Below, piece by piece: positions 1 to 30,703 of a DNA stretch of 32,000 bases. The translations under genes were made by a program, and so were the position numbers. Every line of letters starts with the position of its first letter. Within the stretch, counting starts at the first letter, position 1. The notes under the pieces are model-generated. The model did not search any database. It worked only from the letters and a program-made list of their open reading frames with translations, and was not told the origin of the DNA. This stretch comes from Geobacter metallireducens GS-15 (GTDB lineage Bacteria > Desulfobacterota > Desulfuromonadia > Geobacterales > Geobacteraceae). The DNA lies in NCBI RefSeq assembly GCF_000012925.1, contig NC_007517.1, positions 2,520,001 to 2,552,000 on the forward strand, in the 5' to 3' direction.

Positions 1-1872
1 GAGGTTGGACCCCATGAAATAGCGGGTACGATTCCCTGCTATCATGTGATAGGGGTAAAGGGCCGGGTCGTCCACTTCCGGCGTGCTGTAGGGTGGCCCC
101 TCGTAGACAGGGAGAGCTTCAATACCTGCCCTTTCAAACATGGTCGGTAACAGCTCTACCTTTCCCGACGGGGTGGCAAACCCCTGTTGTTCGTGTTTTT
201 TGTGCATGAGACGGGGAGCCTGGTAATTCCGCTCCTCTTTGGTCCACTGGGCAAAGGAACGCCCCGACGGAGCGAGGAACAGGTTGAGCATCCCTTCCAG
301 GTCTGCCGGCCATCGGTCTTCCTGTCCCAGCCTCTTGCCAAGTCCTTTCCAGAGTTCATAATCGTTGCGCCGCTCAAAGAGAGGCTCCACCGCCTGCTCC
401 CCGCACACGAAGAGGTGGGTCAACCCCCAGTGCATGCTGATGTCAGGCCGTTCCAGATAGTGGGCCGCGGGGAGAACATAATCAGACAGCTGGGCTGTAG
501 GGGTCATGAACAGATCCATAGTCACCAGCAGATCAAGATTGGGGCTCGTGAACGCATCATGGGCAGCCCGTGCTCCCCCCATGGAGAGGAGCGGCTCTCC
601 GTTCTGGACGATGACGGCCTTTACCGGATAGGGCTCTTCTGCAAGTACAGCGCGATAGATGGCGTTCTGGTTGGCAAACAGCATGTAGGCGGCCGCGTTG
701 TGCCCCTTGGGGTGGAGACGGGCCTGGGTTTCGCGGAAGCGTTTGTATGCCTCGACGCCGATAATGGGGAACTCGGCGGAGCCAAGGGTATCCCGTGTGC
801 GCAGGGGGTGATGCACCAGGGCATCCCAATGAATGTTGTCCAGCCAGGCGAACTGTCCCTCATCGTATTTCATGGCCAGGGGGTCGCCTCCCAGCACATC
901 GAGATTGCCGGAGATTGCAACAAGAATCGCCCGCACAAGGGTGGCTGTACGACTGGCACCTTGACCAGCCTGCACCAATGCTACTCCGGGCACAAGACGG
1001 GCAGGACGCACTGTGCCGTACAAACGGGCCACCTCCTCGATCATCTCAACCGGAATTCCGCAGATTGCAGCGACCCGCTCCGGCGGATACTGCTCAATCA
1101 CTTCCCGGGCCTCATCAAACCCTTGGCAATATGCAGCAACAAACTCCCGATCATAGAGCCCTTCACGAAGCATGACATGGGCGATACCCAGAGCCAGGGC
1201 CCCGTCAGTGCGTGGCCGGACCGGTACCCATATATCGGCAATTTCCGCCACACGGGTCTTGCGCGGATCAACGACCACTATTTTCATTCCTTGCTTCTTT
1301 CCCTGGATAAGCCGTTCCATCACCGTAGTACCTGATTCCGCGGGATTAGACCCCCAGATCAAGGCAAGCATGGTCTTACCCGGATGGACAGCCGCATACA
1401 TCGTGTCATAACCATAAACCGAACTCTCGGCGAGAATATGCCCTACCCCGCAGTTACGCCCCTGGTTAACGAAATTGGGAGTACCGAACAGGTTGCAGAA
1501 CCGCCAGGAGGACCAATCGCCCGGCCCCTTGTGGGTACCACCGAGGGTGGCCAGCATTTCGGGTCCGAACTGGTCGCGCAGAGATGACAACTTTGCCGCG
1601 ATCTCGTCCAGAGCCTGCTCCCAACTGATCTGTTCCCATTTCATCTCGCCACGCGCCCCGATCCGCTTAAGTGGATAATTGAGGCGGCCCGGATGTTCAT
1701 GAAGATCGAGGACACGTGGCCCCTTGACACACAAGCTCCCACTGCCGATGGGGCTCGTGGGATCACCCTTTACAGCAACGGGTCGTCCGTCCTTCACGGT
1801 AACGAGAACACCGCAATGTTGCGGGCAAATTGTACAGAAAGTGCGCTTTGTACAACTGTTACTTTCAGTCAT
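1..1872 (-). CDS. Molybdopterin (Mo/W-bisPGD, DMSO-reductase superfamily) oxidoreductase catalytic subunit. First 624 codons only; the 3' end runs off the left window edge.
   Basis: Absent from the supplied ORF track because it is open at the window edge. My translation of the minus strand starts at the ATG at 1872-1870 (RBS AGAGG 7 nt upstream). It reads MTESNSCTKRTFCTICPQHCGVLVTVKDGRPVAVKGDPTSPIGSGSLCVKG..., which is the CxxCxxxC...C [4Fe-4S] motif of MopB N-termini. It continues ...LIWGSNPAESG...MKIVVVDPRKT...VQNGEPLLSMGG...GNRTRYFMGSNL. I translated the frame to nt 1 without a stop. There is no twin-arginine signal. Confidence 0.85.
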   Translation of the reverse strand, partial: MTESNSCTKRTFCTICPQHCGVLVTVKDGRPVAVKGDPTSPIGSGSLCVKGPRVLDLHEHPGRLNYPLKRIGARGEMKWEQISWEQALDEIAAKLSSLRDQFGPEMLATLGGTHKGPGDWSSWRFCNLFGTPNFVNQGRNCGVGHILAESSVYGYDTMYAAVHPGKTMLALIWGSNPAESGTTVMERLIQGKKQGMKIVVVDPRKTRVAEIADIWVPVRPRTDGALALGIAHVMLREGLYDREFVAAYCQGFDEAREVIEQYPPERVAAICGIPVEMIEEVARLYGTVRPARLVPGVALVQAGQGASRTATLVRAILVAISGNLDVLGGDPLAMKYDEGQFAWLDNIHWDALVHHPLRTRDTLGSAEFPIIGVEAYKRFRETQARLHPKGHNAAAYMLFANQNAIYRAVLAEEPYPVKAVIVQNGEPLLSMGGARAAHDAFTSPNLDLLVTMDLFMTPTAQLSDYVLPAAHYLERPDISMHWGLTHLFVCGEQAVEPLFERRNDYELWKGLGKRLGQEDRWPADLEGMLNLFLAPSGRSFAQWTKEERNYQAPRLMHKKHEQQGFATPSGKVELLPTMFERAGIEALPVYEGPPYSTPEVDDPALYPYHMIAGNRTRYFMGSNL

Positions 1873-6612: not shown

Positions 6613-6723
6613 CATTCGTATCATAAAAAAAACCAGTTTTCTATAAATAATTCAGATCCGCTCTCTGATTCCCATAATTACTTTTGGAATACCGACCACC
6701 ACAACCATTGCACAGACAGTTGA

Positions 6724-7674
6724 TCACCCCGGAGAACTCTCTCCTCCTTTCTCTGCCACAACATAGTTCCAGACAGCCTTCGCCATGGAAAAATAGTTTT
6801 TTTCCAACTCAACCTGTCCTCTGGTACTTTGCCGGACGCTGGCAAGGAGGGTTGCAGCACGCGACAGAAAATCCTGCAATCCCCCTCCTCCGTAGAAAAC
6901 ATCGCGACAAAGATCCGAGATCGTAATAATTTGGCTAGTTGCCGAGAGAATGTATGGCATTGCCGGCTCCCACAAGCCGAAATGGGTGGCATATATTCGT
7001 CGGGGAGAAAGCTTGGCAATACGCTCGACCGACTGTACATAGGCGGGGATATCTCCTTTTGGAGGGGAAACCCCTGGCATGGAAACGTACTCGCCAAAAG
7101 GATGTTTCCCTCTAAAAAAAGCGCCAAGGGCGTCGCCAGAGAAGACTCCCCGGGTCGATTCCTCGAAAAACGCCACATGATGGGAGGTGTGACCTGGGGT
7201 ATATAGCACCTTGATACGTCGGACATCGTCAATCTCGATGATTTCACCATCCCCCAATTCCACTACTCGCTCGGCCGGAGCAGGGAGCATGGGGCCAAGC
7301 AGGTCAAAATCTTTTTCCCACACTACCTTGGCGTGGGAAAGGAGTCGCTGCGGATCTAGAATATGCCTCACCCCTAGAGGGTGAATACCGATACGTGCGT
7401 TGGGGAGGTGCCGCAACAACTCACCTGCACCGCCGGCATGGTCCAGGTGAACATGAGTGAGCAGTATCCACCGAATGCTCTCCAAGGGGATACCGGCCTG
7501 TTTGAGACCGGCGAGCCACAAAGGGACAGCAGCTCCGGCACCGGTTTCAACGATACAATTATACCGTTTCCCCCTGACCAGCCAGCCGCCTGCATATCCT
7601 TTCACTCCCCTGTCAAGGGTATCCATGAACATAAAACCAGACGCCGGTTCTTTCAGCACCTTCCCACTCACCAT
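6724..7674 (-). CDS. MBL-fold metallo-hydrolase
   Basis: 316 aa with the HVHLDHAGG (HxHxDH) motif and downstream His/Asp ligand positions. There is a GAGGAG RBS. Confidence 0.85.
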   Translation of the reverse strand: MVSGKVLKEPASGFMFMDTLDRGVKGYAGGWLVRGKRYNCIVETGAGAAVPLWLAGLKQAGIPLESIRWILLTHVHLDHAGGAGELLRHLPNARIGIHPLGVRHILDPQRLLSHAKVVWEKDFDLLGPMLPAPAERVVELGDGEIIEIDDVRRIKVLYTPGHTSHHVAFFEESTRGVFSGDALGAFFRGKHPFGEYVSMPGVSPPKGDIPAYVQSVERIAKLSPRRIYATHFGLWEPAMPYILSATSQIITISDLCRDVFYGGGGLQDFLSRAATLLASVRQSTRGQVELEKNYFSMAKAVWNYVVAEKGGESSPG

Positions 7675-11661: not shown

Positions 11662-12777
11662 TCAGGCTTTATCTTTTTGACTCCATGCTGCAAACAGTTG
11701 CCTGCCGGTATCAAACGGTTCCTGATAGGTTTGTCGTTCTTTTAGTGAAATCGCCTGGGTAGGACAAGTCGTTACGCAAAGTCCACATCCTATGCATTTC
11801 TCCTCGCTTATGTGTAACGGCCCCATGATTGACGTAACACCCCGGACTGGGCACCTCTTTGCACATAAGCCACAAGCGATACATCGTGCTTGCTCTACTC
11901 CGGCAATAAACCTAGATTTCGCCATGGCGTGGGGTTTGTGGGCAATGGCCTGCAATTGTGTACAGCAGCAGGGACAACAACTGCACATAGAAACACCCAT
12001 CTCTTTTGCATTGCCAACCACGTGAACCAATCCGGCCTTTTCTGTCTGATCCAGGATCTCCAAGACTTCTGTTTGGTCCACTTCCCGTCCGTACCCTCTC
12101 TCACTCATAAAGCGGGCAAGATCTCCAAAATGAAAGCAGACCTCCGTGACTTTACCGCAACTGCTTCCACTAAGCTCTGCTGACTTCCTACAAGGGCAAT
12201 GAATCACCACAGCAAAATCATATCGCTTAATAAGCTCTGCCGCCTTCTCGTAGGGGAAAATCTCCTGACTAGTATCTATCGATTTCCCCACAGGAATGAC
12301 TCGTGTGAATGGAGCTCCCCCTAACATGCTCTTGCCCCATCCACTTTTGTAGTATTCCTGCCAAAGCCTGGCCAACTGCTCAGTTCGCGGGTTCCTTTCT
12401 CCTGTGGCAAACGAGGTTTCCCACAATCCCACAGCCGTTGGTAGAAGGCAGTACAGTTCCTTGGCCACTCCATCCTGGGTAATATTCTTTTTATAGACTA
12501 GTGCCTTATCCGCCATTCGTTCAAGAACAGGACGCAATACATTTACATCCAAGTTGCCACGCTGTGCGAGCTTTGTTATTTCCACATGTTGCTGACTCAG
12601 AATCAAGGCAGCTCCAGCCTCTTCAGGAGTGAATCGGATACGGAGGATTCCAAGAATCGATTCCGCCTCGGGGGCACTCAGGACAAACGTATCCAAGTGT
12701 TTACGTAGTTTCACATAGACGTCATCAAGACTTTCGCTTCCGTCGTCCACAGCACTTAATATCAATTCGCCACCCAC
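11662..12777 (-). CDS. Cys-rich iron-sulfur protein with a C-terminal 2x[4Fe-4S] ferredoxin domain
   Basis: Two CxxCxxCxxxCP motifs are present (CIACGLCAKRCP and CIGCGLCVTTCP). It also has HCPCRKSAELSGSSCGKVTEVCFH and a CSCCPCCC cluster (nt 11962-11985). The start is a GTG at 12777 and is uncertain. Confidence 0.75.
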   Translation of the reverse strand: MGGELILSAVDDGSESLDDVYVKLRKHLDTFVLSAPEAESILGILRIRFTPEEAGAALILSQQHVEITKLAQRGNLDVNVLRPVLERMADKALVYKKNITQDGVAKELYCLLPTAVGLWETSFATGERNPRTEQLARLWQEYYKSGWGKSMLGGAPFTRVIPVGKSIDTSQEIFPYEKAAELIKRYDFAVVIHCPCRKSAELSGSSCGKVTEVCFHFGDLARFMSERGYGREVDQTEVLEILDQTEKAGLVHVVGNAKEMGVSMCSCCPCCCTQLQAIAHKPHAMAKSRFIAGVEQARCIACGLCAKRCPVRGVTSIMGPLHISEEKCIGCGLCVTTCPTQAISLKERQTYQEPFDTGRQLFAAWSQKDKA

Positions 12778-12863
12778 TCATTATCTGCCATGATACCCAA
12801 CTCAAGCCCGGAACCTTCAGTCAAAATGGAAAAAAATTGTTCAGCTACATCTCCAATACTTAA
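12762..12863 (-). pseudogene. Orphaned 3' coding remnant of the TetR gene, separated from its body by the IS
   Basis: Joining 14209 to 12863 across one TTAA copy keeps the TetR frame open for 33 more codons: LSIGDVAEQFFSILTEGSGLELGIMADNEWVAN, then a stop at 12764-12762. That stop overlaps the GTG start of the Fe-S gene by 16 nt, an arrangement typical of translational coupling. Confidence 0.5.
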
Positions 12864-12880
12864 CAGGTTGTTGAAAAACT
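12864..12880 (+). repeat. IS left terminal inverted repeat (CAGGTTGTTGAAAAACT)
   Basis: Matches the reverse complement of 14188-14204 (CAGGCCGTTGAAAAACT) at 15 of 17 positions. Confidence 0.8.
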
Positions 12881-12958
12881 AAACCTTTTTGATTCAATAA
12901 GTTAGCGAACTGTGCTATATTTTTACGCGTAACAATCTGAATTTACAGGAGAAAAGTT

Positions 12959-14035
12959 ATGCGCGGCGCCGAGACAAAAACCGAAGCTCTGTTCTGTTAT
13001 CTCTCCCCTGAGTCGTACGTCCCGAAGGACCACCCCTTGCGGTCGATCAGGGCGATGGTGGATAAGGCCCTTGCAGAGCTCAGCCCGCAATTCGAGGCCA
13101 TGTACTCCCACACCGGCCGGCCCTCGATTCCTCCTGAGCAGTTGCTTAAAGCACTTCTGCTTCAGGCGCTGTACACCATCAGGAGTAACCGTCTGCTGGT
13201 GGAGCAGATCAGCTACAGCATCCTGTTCCGCTGGTTTGTGGGATTGGCCCTGGACGAGAAGGTCTGGGACCACTCCTCGTTTTCCACCAACCTGGAGCGG
13301 TTGATCGATACCGACGTGGCACGGCTGCTCTTGGCAAAAGTAGTTGAGCAGGCCCGAAGGGCAAAGCTGTTGTCCGACGAGCACTTCAGCGTTGACGGCA
13401 CCCTCATCGAGGCGTGGGCTTCTATCAAGAGCTTTCGGCCCAAGGATGGACCAAAGCCTCCAGTGGGTCGTAACACGGAGCGTGATTTCCACGGCGAAAA
13501 GCTCAAAAACGACACCCATGCCTCCACCACCGATCCGGATGCGCGGATTGCCAGGAGAAGCTCGGGCAAAGAGGCGAAGCTCAGTTACCACGGGCACGCT
13601 CTCATGGAGAACCGCAACGGGATCATCGTCGATGCCAGAATCACCCACGCAACCGGTACCGCTGAGCGGGATACCGCAGTCGAGATGATCGCAGACGTCG
13701 CCGGTAACAAGCGGATCACCATGGGCGGCGACAAGGGCTACGACACCAAAGAGTGCGTCAAAGATCTGCGAGCACTCAAGGTAACCCCTCACATTGCTCA
13801 GAACACCGCTAACCGCCGCTCAGCCATCGATGGCAGGACTACCCGCCACGAAGGCTACAAAACCAGCCTGAGGATTCGCAAGCGGATCGAAGAGGCCTTC
13901 GGCTGGCTCAAGACTGTCGGCAATCTCCGCAAGACCCGGCATCGGGGAATAGCGAAAGTCGACTGGTACTTCACCATGGCCATTGCGGCATACAATCTGG
14001 TCCGGCTGCGCAATCTCGGGACGAAAACGGCATAA
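12959..14035 (+). CDS. IS5-family DDE transposase
   Basis: 358 aa with an AGGAGAA RBS. The N-terminus is like the IS5-type transposase N-domain (...HTGRPSIPPEQLLKALLLQALYTIRSNRLLVEQISYSILFRWFVGL...). The C-terminal DDE region includes DKGYD and ...RIEEAFGWLK... Confidence 0.9.
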   Translation: MRGAETKTEALFCYLSPESYVPKDHPLRSIRAMVDKALAELSPQFEAMYSHTGRPSIPPEQLLKALLLQALYTIRSNRLLVEQISYSILFRWFVGLALDEKVWDHSSFSTNLERLIDTDVARLLLAKVVEQARRAKLLSDEHFSVDGTLIEAWASIKSFRPKDGPKPPVGRNTERDFHGEKLKNDTHASTTDPDARIARRSSGKEAKLSYHGHALMENRNGIIVDARITHATGTAERDTAVEMIADVAGNKRITMGGDKGYDTKECVKDLRALKVTPHIAQNTANRRSAIDGRTTRHEGYKTSLRIRKRIEEAFGWLKTVGNLRKTRHRGIAKVDWYFTMAIAAYNLVRLRNLGTKTA

Positions 14036-14187
14036 TCAGGGGAATAATGCGACTCTTGGTGGCAAAGCCCGCCCGAAAAGGCCAAATCAAGGTAAAAAGC
14101 AAAGTTTCAAAGAACGAATAGGGCGAGATCAATGCAACTATCGGCCTAAAATGATCTCCTTGAAGGGGATTGCCCTGGAAATGAAGG

Positions 14188-14204
14188 AGTTTTTCAACGG
14201 CCTG
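14188..14204 (-). repeat. IS right terminal inverted repeat
   Basis: AGTTTTTCAACGGCCTG on the plus strand. It pairs with 12864-12880. Confidence 0.8.
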
Positions 14205-14790
14205 TTAAAATATCATTTTTCTTGTACCAAACGCACGCATGATTACACATCCCCATGATTGCCTTGGCTGTAACATGAGGATCAAGGTCTTTGAACAAGT
14301 TTGTTTCTTCTGACTGTATCTGTTGAATTATTCTAACCACCTGTTGTCCATAAAGCCTTTGTTGTTGTTGATATACAGTCCTGCTTTTACCAGTAAGAAA
14401 TTTACCATCTTTGATATTAATTGACAGAACATCCTTCCTTTCTGCCACCATTTTCATATGAAAATGGACAAACTTATTCAATTTTGTAACTCCATCAAGA
14501 CTTTTGTTATTGAGTACTGGTTTGAATTCATCAATATACGCGGGTAGAAAGTTTTCCATTACAGCTAGAAGGATACCTTCCTTACTCTTGAAATAGTGTA
14601 TCACTGTGCTCTTTGAAATCCCTACCATATCCGCAAGAATCCCTATTGACATACCTTTATAACCAACTTCGCTCATAACCATAATCGCAGTTTTTATTAA
14701 TTTATCATAGGTACTGCACTCAATTTTGCCATTATCCCTTTCACTCTCGTACGTGAGGAAATCAACTGAACAATGTCTCTTTGCAGACAT
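14194..14790 (-). CDS. TetR/AcrR-family transcriptional regulator whose last codons and stop are supplied by the IS (C-terminally truncated allele)
   Basis: The N-terminal HTH is KLIKTAIMVMSEVGYKGMSIGILADMVGISKSTVIHYFKSKEGIL. The ORF ends ...WYKKNDILTGR. Codons TGR and the stop lie inside the IS right inverted repeat (14194-14204). Confidence 0.8.
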   Translation of the reverse strand: MSAKRHCSVDFLTYESERDNGKIECSTYDKLIKTAIMVMSEVGYKGMSIGILADMVGISKSTVIHYFKSKEGILLAVMENFLPAYIDEFKPVLNNKSLDGVTKLNKFVHFHMKMVAERKDVLSINIKDGKFLTGKSRTVYQQQQRLYGQQVVRIIQQIQSEETNLFKDLDPHVTAKAIMGMCNHACVWYKKNDILTGR

Positions 14791-14870
14791 TTATTACCTC
14801 CGTGATAGAAGGGAGTCTTGGACAACCCGGCAGGTTATAATATTTTTCGTAAGCATCAGTAAACCAAGAA

Positions 14871-14890
14871 GCCCCCCCTAGCTGGGGGGG
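14871..14890 (-). terminator. GC hairpin downstream of the Cache-protein gene (C7-TAGCT-G7)
   Basis: The sequence is GCCCCCCCTAGCTGGGGGGG. On the minus strand the stem is followed by CTTCTTGGTTT. It lies 6 nt after the stop at 14896. Confidence 0.6.
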
Positions 14891-14895
14891 ATCCA

Positions 14896-15765
14896 TTATT
14901 GCGTATAATAGCCTACTGCAATAAGGTAATTGTCTACTTTACGAAATATAGTGTTCTTAACTTCTATTTTCCCCGTTAATAAATTCCTCCAACGATATGT
15001 CAATGTTCCTTTTCCCTTTTTTTTGGCAATGCCAATCATCTCCTTGACAATTGATTTACCATCAGGGTTTCTCAACTCCATTGCATCTGTGTTGACGAGT
15101 CGCGGTGTAGCACCATGAGCGCGGAAAATATTATCTTTCAAATCTACAACAAATACGTAAAGATCATCCTGTATAAACTTGCTATTAAGATCATTAAAAG
15201 CATTACACGCAGAGACAGGGTCTTTCTTCAGCGTTTCAACAGCCTGCGCAAGGAGAGCATAGGCCTGTACATCACTTGCATGCGGAATGTAGAACCCAAC
15301 AGCAATTATTCGATCCCCTATTCTTTGGAAATAAGTATGTTTGTGTTCAGGCTTCCCATCCAAACGATTGAGCCATTTGTATTCAACCGCACCGGCATTT
15401 TGACTCTTTGCCGTATCTATCATCTCACGAAAAAATAGTTTACCTTCAGCATCTCGCATGTTTGATACGTCCCGACCAATCAAAACTGATGACGATCCAC
15501 CGCTTGCGAGAAATTTCCCATTTGTTCCGATCACATAAACATAGAGATTACCCTTGACGAATTGACCCTGCATGGAGAAGTCTGCAAATGAACGATCCTT
15601 TTTTTTGTTATAGAGCTCGACAGCTCGGGCAAGCATTTCCTTAGCGTTTTTGGAATCATAGCTTTCTTCAGGCTTGGCAGTCGAAGGCTTTATTTGTTCA
15701 GCAGCAAACAACAAATGTGCTGACAACAATGTAATGAGAGCTGTAACGAGGACTACTTTTCTCAT
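14896..15765 (-). CDS. Secreted tandem Cache-like (two sCache-type repeats) protein with no output domain
   Basis: ORF 14896..15813. The ATG at 15765 follows AAGGAGA. The signal peptide is MRKVVLVTALITLLSAHLLFAAEQ. Two homologous halves each contain ...LYV(Y/F)V(I/V)...G... and end in ...IAVGFY and ...IAVGYY. No TM or signalling domain follows. Confidence 0.7.
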   Translation of the reverse strand: MRKVVLVTALITLLSAHLLFAAEQIKPSTAKPEESYDSKNAKEMLARAVELYNKKKDRSFADFSMQGQFVKGNLYVYVIGTNGKFLASGGSSSVLIGRDVSNMRDAEGKLFFREMIDTAKSQNAGAVEYKWLNRLDGKPEHKHTYFQRIGDRIIAVGFYIPHASDVQAYALLAQAVETLKKDPVSACNAFNDLNSKFIQDDLYVFVVDLKDNIFRAHGATPRLVNTDAMELRNPDGKSIVKEMIGIAKKKGKGTLTYRWRNLLTGKIEVKNTIFRKVDNYLIAVGYYTQ

Positions 15766-16009
15766 AATTGTCTCCTTTTCAACTAAATTCGTCACTCTCA
15801 ATGCAAGCTCCACATTTGTATTTGGCCCTATCGACTATCCATTATCCTACAGTCAAACCGCTCTTGTGAGATGTTTCTACTGTTGCCAAAACAGCATGTC
15901 TCCTAAGATAGTAGTCGTATCTTGCATAATCGAAAGTGAGGATTATTCATTCAAAAGCTTTATTGAACTCTGGCGCACAACAAACTATAATCTACCGCTC
16001 AATCACCAA

Positions 16010-16494: not shown

Positions 16495-18990
16495 TCAATA
16501 ATTGTTGCTGCATTCCTTTTGCACTTCAACTGAACTTTCTTCTTCCTCAGTAGCAAATGAAACCTCGGACATGTTTACTGTCTCACTGTCAGCAACCGGT
16601 TTATTGAGCAAAAAATGCGACAATGCAGGAATCATTATCAATGCCCCGAACATATTCCACAGAAACATAAATGTAAGCAGGATTCCCATGTCTGCCTGGA
16701 ACTTGATAGGAGACCAGGCCCACGTAACCACTCCGGCAGCCAACGTAATGCCTACAAGCGCAACCACCTTTCCGGTGAAAAGAACCGCCCGTTTGTAAGC
16801 TGCTGTCAGCGTCAAACCTGCACGCTGATAGTCAAGTTGAACACTCAGCAGGTAGAGAGCGTAGTCGACTCCAATACCCACTCCGAGTGCTATTACCGGC
16901 AGAGTAGCAACCTTCACACCGATACCCAGCGCGACCATAAGCGCTTCACATAGAATGGAGGTGATCATGAGTGGGATCACTGCCACCAGGACGGCACGCC
17001 AGTTACGGAAAGTGATAAAACAAAGTAATGTGACCGCAGCATATACATAAAGCAACATTGTGCGATTCGCACGCTTAACTACTATATTAGTTACAGCATC
17101 AATACCGCTAGAGCCCGCAGCCATAAGAAACTGCCTTTCCTTGACATTATGTTGCGCGGCAAACTGCTCCACAACCTTCACTACGCGATCCAGAGTCTCT
17201 GCCTTATGATCAGTGAGATAAACCACAACTGGAACTATTGAACATGCCTTGTCGACGACATCCGGGTTGTCAGTCAGGTTCCATTGCACCGCACCACCCA
17301 ACATCATTGCATTGTTGGGAATAGCAAGCCATTTAGGATTTCCTTCAGCCAAGCCTGCCACTGTCTGCATTATGTTATCAGACAACGCAGTTGTGCCCTG
17401 TACCCCCGGGACATCTCGCAATATATTGGAAAGACGATCTATCTCATAAAGAGTTTCATAGGTACCGGCACCATTTTCTGGAGTTTTGACAATCACAACA
17501 AACTGGTCACTGGACAACTTATAGTTATTTGTAATAAAAGAATTGTCTCGATTGTAACGAGAGTCCGGCCGCAATTCCGGCGCACCGGCATCCAAATCAC
17601 CGATCTTCAACTGTGAACTCACAACGAGTCCAATGACCGCCAATATCGCCGACACTACAATGACCCTAATGGCCCAGGTTCTCTCGGTAAAACGGTCCAA
17701 GAAGTTCCAAAGCGACCCCAAACCTCTGCCACGACTCTCTACTACATCCTCATTAAGGGCGCGCCTAGCCGCAGATGGACTTACGCCTGTATAGGAAAGA
17801 AATACAGGCAGCAGCAGTAAATTGGTAAAAATCAGAATAGCCACTCCGAAACTGGCGGTTAAAGCCAGATCACGAATCACCGGGATATCAATCAACATGA
17901 GCACGCCAAAACCTACCGCATCGGCCATCAAGGCGGTTGCCCCCGCAAGAAACAGGCGTCGGAATGTGTACCGGGCTGCAACCGTTTTGTGCGTACCACG
18001 TCCAATGTCTTGCATGATACCGTTCATCTTCTGTGCACCGTGACTTACTCCGATGGCAAAGATAAGAAATGGCACAAGAACTGAGTAGGGATCAAGTTCG
18101 TAACCAAGCGTAGCAATAATTCCCAATTGCCACACAACGGCAACAAGCGAACAGAAAATAACCAACAGCGTACTACGGACGCACCGTGTGAAGGTATAGA
18201 TGATAACTGCAGCTATAACAGCTGCAACGGCAAAATAAATCATCATGAGGTACAGACCGTCAATCAGGTCACCGGCAAGTTTAGCAAAACCTATGATATG
18301 AATTTTGATCTTACCTTGGCTTGCAGACTCGTATTTTGTGCGAATTTTCTCCAGATCACGTGAAAAAGCGCCATAATCAAGTCGCTTACCTGTTTCATTG
18401 TTTGTATCCATAAGAGGCAACACGATCATGATTGATTTATAATTGTTGCCCACCAGACTACCTACAATGCCTGCCCTACGAATGTTCGAGTTGAATTTTT
18501 GCAAAGACTCAGGCGTATCGTAACTATCCGGCATCACAGCTCCGCCCCTGAACCCTTCTTCGGTTACCTCTGTCCATCGCACTCCGGCCATCCATATAGA
18601 CTTAACCCAAGGACGATCCACACCAGGGGTCAAATACAACTCTTCATTGATCTGTCTTGTAGTTTCAAGGAAATTTGTATTGAAAATATCGCCTTCAGTA
18701 TTTTCAACTACTACTCGGATATTGTTCCCCGCCGCTGGCAAATCTTTTTTGTTCTCAAAGTAGTTTTTGATATAGGGATGGTTCTGAGGAATCATTTTTT
18801 CAAAGCTGGCATTAACAACCAGTTTACTCAACTGGAATGCTAACAGAATCGTAATCAGGGCACATATACCAATAAGCCAATGCCGATTGTTGAAAACCAA
18901 TCTCTCCAACAGGTTGCCCGAGTTTTTATCAAAGTTTTTTGGATCAGACACAACCGGCATTGCATCGACTTGTTCAGTTTGGATTGCCAT
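16495..18990 (-). CDS. RND-superfamily transporter (MMPL/HpnN-like, single polypeptide)
   Basis: 831 aa. It has two repeats, each a large soluble loop followed by a block of hydrophobic helices (about aa 230-400 and 640-800). This is typical of the MMPL-like RND proteins that accompany DUF1302/DUF1329 genes. There is a GAGGA RBS. Confidence 0.8.
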   Translation of the reverse strand: MAIQTEQVDAMPVVSDPKNFDKNSGNLLERLVFNNRHWLIGICALITILLAFQLSKLVVNASFEKMIPQNHPYIKNYFENKKDLPAAGNNIRVVVENTEGDIFNTNFLETTRQINEELYLTPGVDRPWVKSIWMAGVRWTEVTEEGFRGGAVMPDSYDTPESLQKFNSNIRRAGIVGSLVGNNYKSIMIVLPLMDTNNETGKRLDYGAFSRDLEKIRTKYESASQGKIKIHIIGFAKLAGDLIDGLYLMMIYFAVAAVIAAVIIYTFTRCVRSTLLVIFCSLVAVVWQLGIIATLGYELDPYSVLVPFLIFAIGVSHGAQKMNGIMQDIGRGTHKTVAARYTFRRLFLAGATALMADAVGFGVLMLIDIPVIRDLALTASFGVAILIFTNLLLLPVFLSYTGVSPSAARRALNEDVVESRGRGLGSLWNFLDRFTERTWAIRVIVVSAILAVIGLVVSSQLKIGDLDAGAPELRPDSRYNRDNSFITNNYKLSSDQFVVIVKTPENGAGTYETLYEIDRLSNILRDVPGVQGTTALSDNIMQTVAGLAEGNPKWLAIPNNAMMLGGAVQWNLTDNPDVVDKACSIVPVVVYLTDHKAETLDRVVKVVEQFAAQHNVKERQFLMAAGSSGIDAVTNIVVKRANRTMLLYVYAAVTLLCFITFRNWRAVLVAVIPLMITSILCEALMVALGIGVKVATLPVIALGVGIGVDYALYLLSVQLDYQRAGLTLTAAYKRAVLFTGKVVALVGITLAAGVVTWAWSPIKFQADMGILLTFMFLWNMFGALIMIPALSHFLLNKPVADSETVNMSEVSFATEEEESSVEVQKECSNNY

Positions 18991-19016
18991 ATTGTCCTCG
19001 CATGTTGATAGTTTCG

Positions 19017-20075
19017 CTATTTAAGTGATTCAGTTATGACACCCCGCGAACCCACCGCAACAATGCCATTCTTGCCAGCTGGTGCCACACTGGAAAAGGC
19101 CATTGGACTTGAAACCTTCGCGGGCACAAATGTTTCGCTGCCAACGTCAATCACCAGAACCTGCCCGTCCTGACTCACCAAAACAGCACGGCCATCATCG
19201 AGAAATGTTCCTCCCGTAAGTCCAGCAGTGGTATTGGTATTCAACTTGCGCCATGTATTCCCGCGGTCGCTGCTGCGAAATGCGTTGCCACGCAGGCCGA
19301 ATGCAAGGATGGTCGTATCTTTTGCCAACAGCCCGAAAAAAGTTCCTTTGTACGGAGATGCTATTGTCACAAAACGTTGGCTGGCGCGGTCCCAGCGACG
19401 CAACATCCCCATCTCGCCGGCAAGATAAACTTCCTTACCAACCCCCTTGAGTGCATAAATGTGCAAGTTTTTTGGGTTATCTGTGCGCTCAAACAGGGGC
19501 ACCCACGTCTTACCGGCATCGGTTGTATGCATAATCAGATTAAATGCACCGGCAACAAAACCTTCTTTCTCATCAAGAAACCAAACATCCATAAAGGGCT
19601 TATCGGCCCCTTCCTGTAAAATACGTTGAATATCTGGAAGAATCTTGGAGGCAGCGGCATCTCCCTCTGCAGCCAGTTTTTCGTAATGTTTAAGCATTAT
19701 CTTGGCCACCTGATTGCCGTCAAGCTGTTTGGACCAGGTACGTCCACCGTCACCACTATGCAAAACGACACCATCATGGCCGACAGCCCAGCCTTGATCA
19801 GGCACCGGGAACTGCACTGACACAAGATTCGAACTGACCGGCACAGCAACCTGTTGCCACTTTTTCCCATTGTCGTCCGAAAGAAGAACGAGCCCCCTCG
19901 CCCCGACTGCAGCAAGTCTATTACCATTACGGGTAACCGCAGTGAGTTGGCTAGTCGTCGCATGGAGCTTCATAGACGCAGGGGTCTCAAGCGGTCCTTT
20001 GAATGCTTGTGCCGTTGTCACCCAACAAGTCATGAAAATGAAACATAACGATGTCTTTAATATTTTCGACAGCAT
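19017..20075 (-). CDS. Secreted BNR/Asp-box beta-propeller protein (Ycf48-like)
   Basis: The signal peptide is MLSKILKTSLCFIFMTCWVTTAQA. Four Asp-boxes are present: SDDNGKKW, SGDGGRTW, TTDAGKTW and SSDRGNTW. There is a GGAGG RBS. Confidence 0.8.
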   Translation of the reverse strand: MLSKILKTSLCFIFMTCWVTTAQAFKGPLETPASMKLHATTSQLTAVTRNGNRLAAVGARGLVLLSDDNGKKWQQVAVPVSSNLVSVQFPVPDQGWAVGHDGVVLHSGDGGRTWSKQLDGNQVAKIMLKHYEKLAAEGDAAASKILPDIQRILQEGADKPFMDVWFLDEKEGFVAGAFNLIMHTTDAGKTWVPLFERTDNPKNLHIYALKGVGKEVYLAGEMGMLRRWDRASQRFVTIASPYKGTFFGLLAKDTTILAFGLRGNAFRSSDRGNTWRKLNTNTTAGLTGGTFLDDGRAVLVSQDGQVLVIDVGSETFVPAKVSSPMAFSSVAPAGKNGIVAVGSRGVITESLK

Positions 20076-20210
20076 TTATGAACCTCCATTCTTCTTAATT
20101 ATTCTATTGGCAGCAGTAATCCGTTCTGCATGAAATTCCGGATGAAAAAACGGCATAAGTTATGGGCACAATTAGCCCAAAAGATACTCTTGTCCATGAA
20201 GAAGCATAAC

Positions 20211-21764
20211 TCAACACTTTAACTTACTACTTTCGTATTTCTTCTTGAGAGCAAGTTTGTCAATTTTCCCTGTAGCCGTATGTAGCAAGGCATCGGTGAA
20301 AACAACTGTCTTAGGCTTCGCATAGTTGGCCATTCTTGGCCGGCAGAATTCAATCACCTCTTCCTCGGTAAGGATTTCACCCTTTTTGGGAACGACAACT
20401 GCTTTTACCGCTTCGCCCCAGGTATCGTCCTGCACACCTATTACTGCGACTTCGGCAATCTTGGGATGATCGTGCAGCACATTTTCCACCTGCGCCGGAT
20501 AGACATTTTCACCGCCGGTAATGATCATGAAAGCCTTCCTGTCAACTAGATAGATATATCCCTCATCATCCACCATTGCCATGTCTTTGGTGTGGAGCCA
20601 ACCGCTTCGTATGGCTTCGGCAGTCTCCTCCGGTTTGTTCAAATATCCGGTCATGACCAATCCTCCACCGATCAGAATTTCACCAACCTCACCAGGTTTC
20701 ACATCCTGCCCTTTTTCGTTGACCACTCGTACAATGCAAAAAGCGGCCTCTCTCCCACATGAACCCATCCTCCGAACCGATTCACTTGATCCATTCAAAG
20801 CGGCAGCATGTTCCTCCGGTCTCAGGTAAACGACTCCAAAACTCTCAGAACAACCGTAGCACTGCGTAAACTTGCAGTCAGGAAGCAATTTCATGGCCTT
20901 TTTCAGAGTCTCCATAGGCATGGGTGCCGCGCCATACTTTATTAACTGCAAACTATTCAGATCATATTTCGCCGCATCCGCCCAATTCACCAGGAAATTC
21001 ACCACCACCGGCGCAAGATTTGTTTTGTTTATTTTATAATCCTGCACAGAACTGCAAAATTTCTGAGGATCCCATTCCCGTAGAATGGCAACAGTCGCCC
21101 CCCTGGAAAGGAACGCCAATGAGGTATAAAAGCCCACATGAAAAAGTGGAAATACATTAAGAAACCTATCATCGACGTCTACATAAAGTTCTATGAGCTC
21201 ACTACTGATTCTGTTCATTGCAATCTGGCGTGTCGCCATGGCCCCTTTTGGGGCACCGGTAGTGCCGGTCGTATATATAATGTGCGCAAGATCTTCGCCG
21301 GAAGTTGACACATCGGGTTCCATAGTAGAAGCCTTGGCAATAATGGATTCATATTCATGCATCCCTGTCACTTTGGTCCCGACCGATATACAGGTTTCAA
21401 GAAATGGCAGGTGAGGTCTCAGGGAATTGATGGTGTCGACAAATTCGGCACCTACCAATAGCACGCGGCAGCCCATATCCTCGATCACCTTTTTAATCCC
21501 TTCAGGAGCAAGACGATAATTTACCCCACCGACCGCAACACCGGCCTTGGCACCGGCAGCATAGGCATCAATAATCTCAGCACAATTCATCAGAAGAAAC
21601 CCGAGGCAATCCCCCTTCTTAAGACCACAATCAACAAGGACATTGGCGAGTCGATTCCATCTATCCCCTGCCTCTCTATAGGTAAATCGTCTATCTCCGT
21701 CTATTATTGCACTTTTGGTAGGGAATAATTTGGGGCCTCTGTTGAATATTTCTTTAAGAAGCAC
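20211..21764 (-). CDS. AMP-dependent acyl-CoA synthetase/ligase
   Basis: 517 aa with a GTG start after AGGGGG. Motifs are YTTGTTGAPKGA, TKDMAMVDDEGYIYLVDRK, ITGGENVYP and TATGKIDK. Confidence 0.9.
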   Translation of the reverse strand: MLLKEIFNRGPKLFPTKSAIIDGDRRFTYREAGDRWNRLANVLVDCGLKKGDCLGFLLMNCAEIIDAYAAGAKAGVAVGGVNYRLAPEGIKKVIEDMGCRVLLVGAEFVDTINSLRPHLPFLETCISVGTKVTGMHEYESIIAKASTMEPDVSTSGEDLAHIIYTTGTTGAPKGAMATRQIAMNRISSELIELYVDVDDRFLNVFPLFHVGFYTSLAFLSRGATVAILREWDPQKFCSSVQDYKINKTNLAPVVVNFLVNWADAAKYDLNSLQLIKYGAAPMPMETLKKAMKLLPDCKFTQCYGCSESFGVVYLRPEEHAAALNGSSESVRRMGSCGREAAFCIVRVVNEKGQDVKPGEVGEILIGGGLVMTGYLNKPEETAEAIRSGWLHTKDMAMVDDEGYIYLVDRKAFMIITGGENVYPAQVENVLHDHPKIAEVAVIGVQDDTWGEAVKAVVVPKKGEILTEEEVIEFCRPRMANYAKPKTVVFTDALLHTATGKIDKLALKKKYESSKLKC

Positions 21765-21867
21765 GACGCACCCCCTGTTGTTGATTGCAATCTTTTGTCA
21801 TATTGTTCGCTTTATTCATAATGTAGAATCAGAATGCAGTTCGTTTATCTATTTGTGCGTTTTCCAT

Positions 21868-21903
21868 GTGGTTCCGCAGCGGTTATCACCGCTGCGGAAC
21901 CAC
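21868..21903. other. Perfect 16-bp stem / 4-nt loop hairpin between the DUF1329 gene and the CoA ligase gene
   Basis: The sequence is GTGGTTCCGCAGCGGT-TATC-ACCGCTGCGGAACCAC. It starts 8 nt after the DUF1329 stop. No U-tract follows on either strand. Confidence 0.6.
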
Positions 21904-21910
21904 AACCAAC

Positions 21911-23245
21911 TTACTTCATATTCTCTTTAAGAATGAACGAAGTCATCGAATCTTGAGTCAGCTTACCGGGGGGGAGGAAGCGTACTGGCTTGTACCCGAA
22001 CTCAGGTACTTGTGTGTAAAAGATTCCAGTCACGAGATTATGGAATTGCTGTACATCTACGGCTGGAGCTTTGACATCATAGTTCGGCATGAGGGGAACA
22101 ATTTCAGACATAAAGAGTTTGCCCTTCGAGTCATAATCATCCATTACGCCGCCAAACCATGCGTCCTCGTCCAAGTAAATCATGCGTTTGCTGTAGATAT
22201 GGCGTTTACCCGGCTTCAGCCTCGCCTCGACCACCCACACACGGTGCAATTCCCAACGCATCACATCCGGGTTGGCAAACCCAGCCCTAAGTTGCTGTTC
22301 TTTTTTTGTCAAACAAAGTTTGTAGGTATTATAAGGGATATACATTTCCTTCTTTCCGACAAGTTTGAAGTCAAACCGGTCCATCAACCCACTGAACATG
22401 TCAGCGTCGTCATACGTATACACACCCGCTACCTGGGAAATCGGCGTATCGGCAGCCGCATCGGGTGACAGTCTGACACGGCGCGAAGCCGGCTGGTACG
22501 AGTATGCACGCCGTCCGATTTTCGAATCCACATAGTCAGTAATTATACTTGTCTGTCCATTGATACGAGCAGGGCCGATATACTCCCCACGATACATCCA
22601 GTATTGGTCAGGATTTTTCTTGCTCGGATTGTAGATACCATACTCTCTGTACATGAAAGTCGACTGGGTTTGCACTACTTCACCCGACGGCTTTACAAAG
22701 TAACCACCGACTTTGTAAATCATTGCAGGGAGCGCAGGTCGGGCAAAGTGGTTCCACATAACCTCGTAGCCGTTCTTGGGCACAGGAAAGGGGATACCAT
22801 GGCCACATCCTTTAGAGGTATCTAGAGATATTCCTCCATCGGTAGTTCTACATCTTGTCATATTCTTTTCTGTGTTCTCTTCAAAACTTTGGGTGTACGC
22901 TGCCGAACGTCGGGTTTGATATACATCCATCCGGAAGTTAGGATATTTTTTCAGCAAAGCCTTTTGCCCATCAGACAATTTATCAGCGTATTTATCCATG
23001 TTTTTTCCCGTTATCGAGAACAGGACCTTATCGCTGGCAAATGGATCCGGCAAATTCCCCATCCCCTTTACAAACCCTGCTGGCCGGCCGGTATAACCAC
23101 CTGTCCACGCAGGAATGGTGCCGTCCTTGTTACCAGCCTTTTCCGCTCCAGCTGGAGTAAGATGGGAAGGTAGGCCTGCCTGGGCCCCCCCTACATACGA
23201 TGTAGACACCACTAAGGCACCGATGATGATTTTTGTGAATTTCAT
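21911..23245 (-). CDS. DUF1329-family periplasmic protein (LolA-like fold family)
   Basis: Has a signal peptide followed by the characteristic N-terminus ...LTPAGAEKAGNKDGTIPAWTGGY... It is 444 aa with an AAGGAGA RBS and sits directly downstream of the DUF1302-like barrel gene. Confidence 0.8.
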   Translation of the reverse strand: MKFTKIIIGALVVSTSYVGGAQAGLPSHLTPAGAEKAGNKDGTIPAWTGGYTGRPAGFVKGMGNLPDPFASDKVLFSITGKNMDKYADKLSDGQKALLKKYPNFRMDVYQTRRSAAYTQSFEENTEKNMTRCRTTDGGISLDTSKGCGHGIPFPVPKNGYEVMWNHFARPALPAMIYKVGGYFVKPSGEVVQTQSTFMYREYGIYNPSKKNPDQYWMYRGEYIGPARINGQTSIITDYVDSKIGRRAYSYQPASRRVRLSPDAAADTPISQVAGVYTYDDADMFSGLMDRFDFKLVGKKEMYIPYNTYKLCLTKKEQQLRAGFANPDVMRWELHRVWVVEARLKPGKRHIYSKRMIYLDEDAWFGGVMDDYDSKGKLFMSEIVPLMPNYDVKAPAVDVQQFHNLVTGIFYTQVPEFGYKPVRFLPPGKLTQDSMTSFILKENMK

Positions 23246-23296
23246 AGTATCTCCTTTGCTTGGTGCAAGACTGTTAATACCGCCAAATTGATCTAC

Positions 23297-24931
23297 CTAG
23301 AATGCATACTTGTACGTGAATGATAACCAGCCACGATCCTGGAGTTGTGAACCATTGCTCGCGGTAATTGTACTGCCATTGTCCTTGTATGTTGCCAGAT
23401 AGCCGTTATATGCCAGACTGAACGTATGCAGGGTGTTGTAAATCGCATTGAAACCTACTCCATAGGAACCGGCACCTTCATTACCGCCCCCCATAGTTGC
23501 TCCGTTACCAAACAAACCATAAGAGACACTCATCGGCATCTCAAGATCCCAGCCCTCAGCGAAAGCTGTCCACGCGGGAGTGAATTTGAGATATCCCACC
23601 ATGTTCTCGTCTGTCACACAACCGTATGCAGCACTGTCTTTTCCTGGAGCCTTCTTGTAACAAGCATTGAACAGGTTTTCGTTATCAGTGACTCGAAGAT
23701 ACTTGCTGAATGCAAATTCGGCTATTACTGACGAGTTGGTCCATAATGGCGTATGGCCAAAGCTGCCGATCGCATTTGCCAAGATATGGACTGTATCGCC
23801 ACGTGCACCCTCGAGGGATCCATTGGCTATTGAACTGTTCAATGCCGTATTATGTCGATAACTGAACTCTGAACCGAAACTAAAACCTAAAAGCTGCTTA
23901 GAGAAACTGATACCCACGAGATGAGCATTCTTTGCGTAAACAGCTCTGTAGCTCCCGGCACCAGGGTTTAAGCTCACCCAGGGAGAGGTCTCGTCAAACA
24001 TCCGGTAATATAGACCAAGAGTTCCATCCAACCATTGGGGACTCCACCTGGCGCTAAGACCGAAGTCGCCATACGTATCCGGTTTTACTGCACCCTCTCG
24101 CCTCAGAAAAACGCCGGGTGCAAGTGAGAATCGATCTGGCCCATTAAGAATGAAATCGGTAGCAGCCAAATAGGTGCCCCCTTCCGGGAACCGGCTCCCT
24201 CGCCATTCCAAATAATATTGGCCTGCAACGGAGAGTTCCGGAGTCAGCTGTATTTTACCCGCAATCTGGGTAATCGGCATGGAGACTTCCTTTGCATCAA
24301 CACCAGGAGTTGAAAGTGCTTTCACTACATCGGTAGGAGCCTGAGCATAGGAAACGCTATGGGCGGACAAGACGACCGTTTCACCCCAAAGAACCGTCTG
24401 GCGCCCTATCGCCACATTAACCGGCATATCGCCAAGATCGAAGCTGCCCCACACATTTGCATCCAGCAATTCTCCCGAAGGTCCAATATAATATCGTTTT
24501 GTGTACGAGTTGTACTTGCCGCCGGAATAACTTCCACGGTCAGCCAAGGAAGGATTGGTCTTGGCATTATCATTGTACGCAACGTCAGCCCAAACCGCCC
24601 CACTCACGCGGATGCCCAATTTCTTTTTGTAGCTGAAATCAAGCTCTGACAAGAGGTCAAGCCGATTCGTCACCAAGTCTCCACTTTTGTCAAACTTGTA
24701 ATCACCTTCATCTGAAGACGCGGTGTTGCCAATCTTGTGGTCCATACTCTGGATACGCATGCCGAGGTTATAACGGATGTTATTTCCCCATGCCAGGAAC
24801 AGGTCTGGATTGCCTGTGTTAATTTCAAAGGCATTTGCCGCAACCAGTGAACCGAGAACACATGTTACTGCCACTAGAGAAACAACCGGGAAGCGGCACA
24901 ATTTCCATTTCGCTTTAAAAATATCGCTCAC
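23297..24931 (-). CDS. DUF1302-family outer-membrane beta-barrel protein
   Basis: The GTG start follows AGGAGG. It has a signal peptide (...VTCVLGSLVAANA), long stretches of alternating hydrophobic residues rich in Gly, Tyr, Asn and Ser, and a C-terminal ...FTYKYAF with terminal Phe (OMP signature). The family call comes from its pairing with DUF1329. Confidence 0.7.
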   Translation of the reverse strand: MSDIFKAKWKLCRFPVVSLVAVTCVLGSLVAANAFEINTGNPDLFLAWGNNIRYNLGMRIQSMDHKIGNTASSDEGDYKFDKSGDLVTNRLDLLSELDFSYKKKLGIRVSGAVWADVAYNDNAKTNPSLADRGSYSGGKYNSYTKRYYIGPSGELLDANVWGSFDLGDMPVNVAIGRQTVLWGETVVLSAHSVSYAQAPTDVVKALSTPGVDAKEVSMPITQIAGKIQLTPELSVAGQYYLEWRGSRFPEGGTYLAATDFILNGPDRFSLAPGVFLRREGAVKPDTYGDFGLSARWSPQWLDGTLGLYYRMFDETSPWVSLNPGAGSYRAVYAKNAHLVGISFSKQLLGFSFGSEFSYRHNTALNSSIANGSLEGARGDTVHILANAIGSFGHTPLWTNSSVIAEFAFSKYLRVTDNENLFNACYKKAPGKDSAAYGCVTDENMVGYLKFTPAWTAFAEGWDLEMPMSVSYGLFGNGATMGGGNEGAGSYGVGFNAIYNTLHTFSLAYNGYLATYKDNGSTITASNGSQLQDRGWLSFTYKYAF

Positions 24932-30398: not shown

Positions 30399-30703
30399 AG
30401 GACATATCCTCTGCGATGGGGCTCGTTGTAATTGACCGGAAAAACTGCCATCGCCGTGAGATTTGCACCAACGTGCAAATCTCACGGCTACGTTCGTATT
30501 ACTGCTGGGAAACAAGGTACGATACATTATAAAATGTAGTTTTGTATAATTACACTTTCAGTCCATATCTATATTATTCATTCTAATGAACCAGCTAACT
30601 TCAAGTCCACAGAAACCTCAGCATGTCATCAATTACCGCTATTAGGCGCTCTCGCTCCACCATGCAACCATGCTCAGTTACTGGCAAAACAGACCAACCC
30701 CAC

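Follow-up and report, generated by a model that had tools for sequence, protein, structure and literature searches.

The question raised by this locus is whether the TetR-type regulator encoded by Gmet_2241 of Geobacter metallireducens GS-15 still possesses its own C-terminus, or whether this end was cut off by ISGme1, an insertion sequence (IS) of the IS5 family, a copy of which adjoins the 3′ end of the gene. The stretch of DNA analyzed here (the window) comprises 32,000 nucleotides (nt), positions 2,520,001-2,552,000 of the GS-15 chromosome, and all positions below are those of the window unless the chromosome is named. Butler et al. (2007; PMC1924859), in their supplementary table, place the three genes concerned on the chromosome at 2534194-2534790 (Gmet_2241, TetR), 2532959-2534035 (Gmet_2240, the transposase of this ISGme1 copy) and 2531662-2532777 (Gmet_2239, an Fe-S protein), and the window belongs to the final third, which is low in GC, of the “aromatics island” of 300 kb described by the same authors. 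The explanation that best accounts for the whole, with a probability of about 0.9, is a simple and recent insertion of ISGme1 that truncated Gmet_2241, the functional consequences of which we infer.

As it now stands, Gmet_2241 is an open reading frame (ORF) of 198 aa on the minus strand (14194-14790), which corresponds to the deposited GS-15 protein ABB32468.1 / WP_011365995.1 and in which residues 1-195 are native and the last three, T-G-R, are foreign (...NDIL-TGR*). Its ATG, at 14790, lies 6 nt (TAATAA) after a GGAGG Shine-Dalgarno sequence, and a TetR_N domain (PF00440) is recognized at residues 31-77 with 42.5 bits. The adjoining ISGme1 copy, delimited by its inverted repeats and by comparison with five other copies, extends over 1,341 bp on the plus strand (12864-14204); its left repeat, CAGGTTGTTGAAAAACT (12864-12880, plus strand), and its right repeat, CAGGCCGTTGAAAAACT (14188-14204, minus strand), are both of 17 bp and coincide at 15 of 17 positions, the mismatches being at positions 5-6. 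On either side stands a TTAA (12860-12863 and 14205-14208), a direct repeat of exactly 4 bp because the adjacent bases differ on both sides. The element carries a single transposase gene (12959-14035, plus strand; 358 aa), whose product contains the Pfam domains DUF772 (84 bits) and DDE_Tnp_1 (59 bits) and reaches 293 bits against the NCBIfam model NF033581, “IS5 family transposase,” the cutoff of which is 140. The original prediction, made from the letters of the sequence, had proposed the family, the 17-bp repeats and the flanking TTAA, and in all three it was right. It had also placed the last three codons and the stop of the TetR frame inside the right repeat, and this applies to 14194-14204, which contribute the Gly and Arg codons, two bases of the Thr codon and the TGA stop, but not to 14205, the base with which the Thr codon opens and which is part of the target duplication.

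On the far side of the IS the missing end of the gene is still legible. The excision of the element together with one TTAA yields an ORF of 227 aa ending in ...LSIGDVAEQFFSILTEGSGLELGIMADNEWVAN, with its stop at 12762-12764, in which the stranded remnant (12762-12859, minus strand) and the A of the TTAA at 12860 encode residues 196-227 (SIGDVAEQFFSILTEG...), that is, a predicted helix α9 and a disordered tail. The 227-aa protein had been anticipated, and it depends on a duplication of exactly 4 bp; lengths of 0, 2, 3 and 5 bp were tried instead and rejected, since the frame then runs into premature stops and ORFs of just 194-202 aa result.

The homologues of the protein permit this reconstruction to be judged from outside the locus. 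In a set of 19, of 188-222 aa and with 40-69% identity over the whole alignment, the WYK... segment is followed in every case by LSIxEIAEQFFxILTxG, where the reconstruction reads LSIGDVAEQFFSILTEG at the same place, and in none (0/19) does the C-terminus coincide with the break point; in other words, orthologues ending at ...WYKKNDIL, which would have spoken against a truncation, do not appear among them. The 33-aa extension, compared with a profile built from the C-termini of the homologues only, obtains 27.3 bits (E = 5e-7), as against 10.9 bits for the best of 5,000 shuffled extensions, and with its addition the match to the Pfam domain TetR_C_24, a profile of 114 positions, rises from 57.3 bits (positions 3-93) to 66.3 bits (positions 3-113), a gain of 9 bits, so that the expected resemblance to orthologous C-termini is borne out. 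With the GS-15 paralogue Gmet_2216 (66% identity) the alignment is gap-free over residues 26-211 and crosses the junction. Judged by these comparisons, the reconstruction of a 227-aa ancestral TetR is correct.

The ends of the element can likewise be contrasted with those of its other copies. The same transposase is found in five short Logan contigs, which derive from unrelated sequencing runs; one of them measures exactly 1,341 bp and runs from CAGG to CCTG, and the junctions in the remaining ones are CTAG/CAGG (twice), TTAA/CAGG, CCTG/CTAG and CCTG/TTAA. Other copies provide single junctions, both flanks being visible together only for the copy in the window, and these add up to CTAG three times, TTAA twice and CTAA once, all of which fit YTAR. 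Thus, the boundaries at 12864 and 14204 and the 4-bp duplication at a YTAR-type site, both of them part of the original prediction, agree with the behavior of the element elsewhere. The CTAA case (CTAA/CAGG) comes from contig AGJM01000020.1 of the G. metallireducens strain RCH3 (L095, 3906-4594), where a diverged relative of ISGme1, around 91% identical over 689 nt and annotated “ISGsu3 transposase, partial,” adjoins MlaE/MlaF/MlaD at the end of the contig.

The junctions are also reproduced in independent data. Contigs identical to the window are present in the assemblies of SRR9436585 and SRR9436586 and repeat both junctions base for base: the right one in contigs L090 and L091, covering both runs, which end 26 nt into the IS, at 14179, and the left one in contig L094 (SRR9436585), which also ends 26 nt into the IS, at 12889. 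To stop at that distance inside a repeated element is the expected behavior of an assembler, and both junctions are therefore to be counted as reproduced. The insertion is not an assembly artefact.

With these data two alternative explanations of the structure can be weighed. One of them holds that the frame is open beyond the IS by mere coincidence, the native end of TetR having been close to residue 195 and the insertion having taken place just past it; a 33-codon frame does arise by chance in ~10-12% of trials (the computed probability at this composition is ~0.10-0.12, and not roughly 1 in 5 as had been estimated), but the extension shows highly significant homology and no homologue ends at the break point, so the estimate for the open frame becomes irrelevant, and the motif of the homologues, the C-terminal profile score and the gap-free alignment with Gmet_2216 refute the coincidence, to which we would concede next to no probability. 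The other would see in the IS an artefact of assembly, repeated IS copies being a classic source of misassembly, or else the end of a composite transposon, given that Gmet_2091 and Gmet_2240, which are identical, could form one according to a suggestion of Butler et al. (2007; PMC1924859). It is very improbable, though slightly less so than the former: two independent assemblies enter the IS by 26 nt at its junctions, and the presence of the same TTAA on both sides, with a single gene continued in frame, is something that neither a composite end nor a product of recombination between IS copies would display. Since both flanks share TTAA and continue one frame, the unit of insertion was a simple IS and not the edge of a composite transposon.

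The course of this simple insertion was in all likelihood the following. A resident copy of ISGme1 transposed into a TTAA, which is a YTAR target, between codons 195 and 196 of Gmet_2241, generating the 4-bp duplication that is typical of the IS5 family; the reading of TetR now enters the right inverted repeat and stops after three foreign residues (TGR), giving the protein of 198 aa, and the last 32 native codons, corresponding to α9 (197-208) and the disordered tail, are left stranded beyond the IS. The GC content of the TetR gene is 36% and that of the surroundings 0.39-0.47, in comparison with 0.55-0.59 for the IS and a genome mean of 59.5%; an element close to the genome mean between AT-rich flanks is therefore a resident one that hopped into recently acquired AT-rich DNA. 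As for the time of the event, the remnant of 33 codons contains no stop or frameshift, the duplication is intact, and Butler et al. (2007; PMC1924859) report a nucleotide identity of 100% between the Gmet_2240 copy and Gmet_2091, three observations which together point to an evolutionarily recent insertion, as had been supposed from the first.

The element itself, its family and the position of the Gmet_2240 copy were already known, being published and present in databases. NCBI and UniRef give the exact transposase sequence the name “IS5-like element ISGme1 family transposase,” the assignment of ISGme1 for ISfinder is due to Aklujkar et al. (2009), and Butler et al. (2007; PMC1924859) list the copy in the window as Gmet_2240; with an identical transposase and matching coordinates, there is no difference between the known element and this one. 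Identical transposases figure under at least four GS-15 accessions (ABB30528, ABB31309, ABB32320, ABB32467), which, together with the 100% identical copies, would be indirect signs of transposition activity. The closest relatives outside G. metallireducens, among the best 80 loci listed in genome contigs, are 58-79% identical and come, among the matches listed, from deltaproteobacterial, Azospirillum and Acidobacteria genomes. The elements of the IS5 group encode one DDE transposase, the N-terminal domain of which is InsH-like (DUF772), end in short inverted repeats and produce a 4-bp target duplication at YTAR sites. ISGme1 resembles E. coli IS5 and its group in the DDE transposase with DUF772, in the short repeats, here enclosing a single-ORF element within the range of around 1.0-1.5 kb (1,341 bp, 358 aa), and in the 4-bp YTAR duplication, but its termini differ in sequence (CAGG...). 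The NCBIfam models for IS1182, ISNCY, IS982 and IS4 were also considered for the transposase and rejected, as the scores were all under their cutoffs.

What the regulator has lost can be judged from an AlphaFold model of the 227-aa reconstruction (mean predicted local distance difference test, pLDDT, of 83; predicted template modeling score, pTM, of 0.75), which consists of a disordered and non-conserved leader (1-26) followed by nine helices, the last two being α8 (171-188) and α9 (197-208). The pLDDT of α9 is around 90; residues 215-227 are predicted to be disordered (pLDDT <50), and beyond approximately residue 211 there is no conservation among the homologues. According to the model, the break after residue 195 takes away α9 entirely. 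By coverage of TetR_C_24, a complete C-terminal domain (α4-α9) exists in the reconstruction and no longer in the present 198-aa ORF, which is in line with the earlier claim that the end of the ligand-binding and dimerisation domain had been removed.

The best structural matches of the model found by Foldseek, all with probability 1.00, are PfmR (3VPR), KstR2 (4W97), AibR (5K7H) and FadR (3WHB/5GP9), with TM-scores normalised to the target of 0.79-0.88 and sequence-profile E-values from 1e-19 to 1e-15. These are TetR regulators that respond to acyl-coenzyme A (acyl-CoA) or CoA esters; like the reconstruction, PfmR, AibR, the Bacillus FadR and KstR2 have the nine-helix TetR fold with a ligand domain of the TetR_C_24 type, but they share with it just 17-23% of sequence identity, and all of them keep the C-terminal helix equivalent to the one lost in Gmet_2241. 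The protein was not accepted as a FadR, since it obtains 52.3 bits against the NCBIfam equivalog NF053878, with a cutoff of 200, and so it resembles FadR and is not its orthologue. Since α8 and α9 constitute the hydrophobic dimer interface in the acyl-CoA-type TetR subgroup, the 198-aa product, by analogy and according to the model, most likely can neither dimerise stably nor repress.

The paralogue Gmet_2216 is identical to Gmet_2241 over ISKSTVIHYFKSKEGILLA (residues 56-76), a segment which spans the modeled α3 (60-67), and in view of this identity it may partly substitute for Gmet_2241 as a back-up. At the opposite end of the protein, the GS-15 TetR bears an N-terminal leader of 22-23 residues (MSAKRHCSVDFLTYESERDNGKIE; 14722-14790, minus strand), predicted to be disordered (pLDDT <50), which is absent from 19/19 homologues, these beginning at ME.NTYDKL.

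The consequences of the insertion would depend on how the neighboring genes are transcribed. A GC-rich hairpin with a T-rich tail, located by scanning at 14872-14891 (minus strand), lies between the upstream Cache-domain gene and TetR, and, as it comes after the former, TetR probably opens its own transcription unit. Downstream and also on the minus strand follow the gene of the 4Fe-4S protein (Gmet_2239; 11662-12777, minus strand, from Pfam and the published coordinates) and those of an acyl-CoA thioesterase II, a glyoxalase-fold protein, a short-chain dehydrogenase/reductase (SDR) and a zinc-dependent alcohol dehydrogenase, as well as further genes of the thioesterase, metallo-β-lactamase-fold, SnoaL, SDR and CoA-ligase types. 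The zinc-dependent enzyme would be, from the published coordinates of its neighbors, Gmet_2235, predicted to be a benzyl-alcohol dehydrogenase (Butler et al., 2007; PMC1924859). The association is not peculiar to GS-15: on two metagenomic contigs, uninterrupted TetR homologues precede genes for HypA-like, CobW, Fe-S, CoA ligase, thioesterase, glyoxalase and SDR proteins, a matching downstream set from which the association between TetR and the cluster can be taken as conserved. The HypA-like and CobW/HypB-like metallochaperone genes, situated there between TetR and the Fe-S gene (L086, 4013-5075; L087, 908-2030), are absent at the GS-15 position, and hint that the Fe-S protein needs metal insertion.

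The ancestral TetR ORF overlaps the annotated Fe-S ORF by 16 nt. The original prediction had made the TetR stop overlap the GTG start of the Fe-S gene, which was mistaken, the TGA being at 12762-12764 and the GTG at 12775-12777. An alternative TTG start (12763-12765), preceded by GGGTGG, would give a 4-nt overlap, TTGA, with the ancestral TetR stop; homologous Fe-S proteins begin 15-27 residues further in than the annotated Gmet_2239, the GTG of which is probably too far upstream, judging by its relatives. The IS now puts 1.34 kb between TetR and the Fe-S gene, with the transposase gene on the opposite strand, and would thus uncouple the TetR promoter from the genes of the Fe-S protein, thioesterase, glyoxalase, SDR and Gmet_2235, resulting either in derepression or in an expression reduced by polarity.

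It can also be argued that little or nothing changed in regulation, or that what changed was not repression. If the 198-aa TetR were still a working repressor, the insertion would have been near-neutral, with α9 dispensable or its loss covered by Gmet_2216, and this would be compatible with the intact helix-turn-helix domain and α4-α8, with the 57 bits that the truncated protein still obtains for TetR_C_24, with the strong Shine-Dalgarno sequence and the retained frame, with a paralogue 66% identical overall and identical over the segment mentioned above, and with a RefSeq annotation as an ordinary TetR. We consider it unlikely, because α9 is the most conserved C-terminal part across the 19 homologues and is modeled with high pLDDT, because the dimer contact of AibR is formed by α8 and α9, and because the functional unit of the TetR family is the dimer. 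A somewhat better, but still doubtful, standing can be granted to polarity as the main effect in place of derepression, with the IS blocking read-through from the TetR promoter and silencing the Fe-S, thioesterase and dehydrogenase genes; Rho-dependent termination within ~1.4 kb of untranslated antisense RNA is an example of how this might occur, equally tentative. The overlap of the ancestral TetR and Fe-S ORFs would imply co-transcription and translational coupling, the transposase gene is opposite to the direction of the operon, and the consensus scan finds no outward promoter-like site at the left end of the IS; but a strong intrinsic terminator is missing from the minus strand of the element, the downstream genes could have internal promoters, and in the homologous clusters TetR is followed by a gap of 30-70 nt and by other genes before Fe-S, and therefore coupling is not a conserved feature.

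Returning to the simple, recent insertion that truncated Gmet_2241, several points weigh against it or against the consequences attributed to it. The exact 24-mer of the excised junction has 0 matches in the metagenome contigs, and the protein database contains no near-identical 227-aa allele, the nearest uninterrupted relative being 72% identical; with no empty-site allele in the collections searched, the ancestral state is therefore reconstructed and not observed. The loss of repressor function is something that we infer, and the autoregulation of Gmet_2241 and its control of the downstream cluster are suggested by gene order: upstream of Gmet_2241, Gmet_2216 and two homologues no palindrome or shared motif that could be an operator was found, and the search for inverted repeats and shared k-mers yielded the terminator hairpin and one shared 8-mer only, the latter taken as due to chance. 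In the scan of 12500-15000 for promoter and terminator consensus sequences no outward promoter was found, and within the element the minus strand showed a single weak hairpin resembling a terminator; the counts did not exceed those of shuffled sequence, that is, they were at chance level, and they speak neither for nor against polarity or an outward promoter. For the downstream genes the net result could be derepression, the repressor being inactive, or polarity, caused by the long untranslated antisense stretch. As for RCH3 as a comparator, the look-ups with the Cache, Fe-S and 198-aa TetR proteins matched Logan contigs only, with nothing from RCH3.

It is tempting, albeit speculative, to see in the ISGme1 insertion not a neutral scar but a regulatory rewiring, by which the horizontally acquired low-GC catabolic cluster, Gmet_2235 included, would have become constitutive in GS-15 through the loss of the dimerisation helix of its local acyl-CoA-type repressor, or would have been silenced by polarity. 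If this were true, resident IS elements would shape the domestication of newly acquired aromatic-degradation genes.

No report of the truncation of Gmet_2241 by an ISGme1 copy was found in the literature searched. In the searchable literature the locus tags Gmet_2216, Gmet_2239-2242 and Gmet_2244 are mentioned only by Butler et al. (2007; PMC1924859), in whose main text the term “TetR” does not appear, and ISGme1 is not mentioned in the searchable papers. The truncation thus appears to be unreported, and the type of event is routine, the ordinary disruption of a gene by a known element. Insertions of IS elements are known to inactivate repressor genes of the TetR family, for example acrR and the efflux regulators of the mexZ/nfxB type. 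The likeness with these cases is that a TetR-type repressor situated beside its presumed target genes is interrupted by a mobile element; the differences are that in Gmet_2241 the insertion lies at the very 3′ end, so that only α9 is lost, and that ISGme1 also parts the gene from the co-directional genes downstream.

The main value of the observation concerns annotation: the RefSeq product name for WP_011365995.1 is that of an ordinary TetR regulator of 198 aa, when Gmet_2241 is 3′-truncated, with its last helix 1.3 kb away, and should be flagged as disrupted. It also raises a question of physiology, that is, whether the Fe-S/thioesterase/dehydrogenase cluster to which Gmet_2235 belongs is misregulated in the type strain. 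Finally, an independent simple insertion qualifies the suggestion of Butler et al. (2007; PMC1924859) that Gmet_2091 and Gmet_2240 delimit a composite transposon.

With regard to the rest of the window, Pfam was searched with 30 ORFs, namely those of at least 120 aa without a longer overlapping ORF plus the overlapped one at 6678-7250, and among them a DNA-binding domain was found in 1/30, the TetR ORF, so that within this set it is, as had been stated, the only regulator of the window. The scan of the whole window with Rfam gave 0 matches. Upstream of TetR extends a module of uptake type (16495-24931, minus strand), with DUF1302 (544 aa) and DUF1329 (444 aa) proteins, an AMP-binding ligase, a BNR/YCF48-like protein (352 aa) and an MMPL/RND protein (831 aa), after which comes a Cache-domain protein devoid of output domain (14896-15813); a possible role of this module is to bring in the substrate of the cluster or to detect it.

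Two further features lie apart from the locus. The gene of an AMP-binding acyl-CoA ligase is split (28739-30527, minus strand), with a shift of frame near 29425-29435, in such a way that the ORF at 29283-30527 covers positions 6-305 of the Pfam domain and the ORF at 28739-29461 covers positions 293-384 together with AMP-binding_C, and the conserved ...GGAPYTPTL / (V)REITEKFGMSLFAAYGMTEN carries on in the next frame; this has the appearance of a pseudogene with a frameshift, or else of an error in sequencing. Near the beginning of the window, an ORF of 382 aa with no Pfam match (187-1335, plus strand) is read from the strand opposite to nearly all the genes of the window, and the GC content around it, 0.59, is the maximum of the window.

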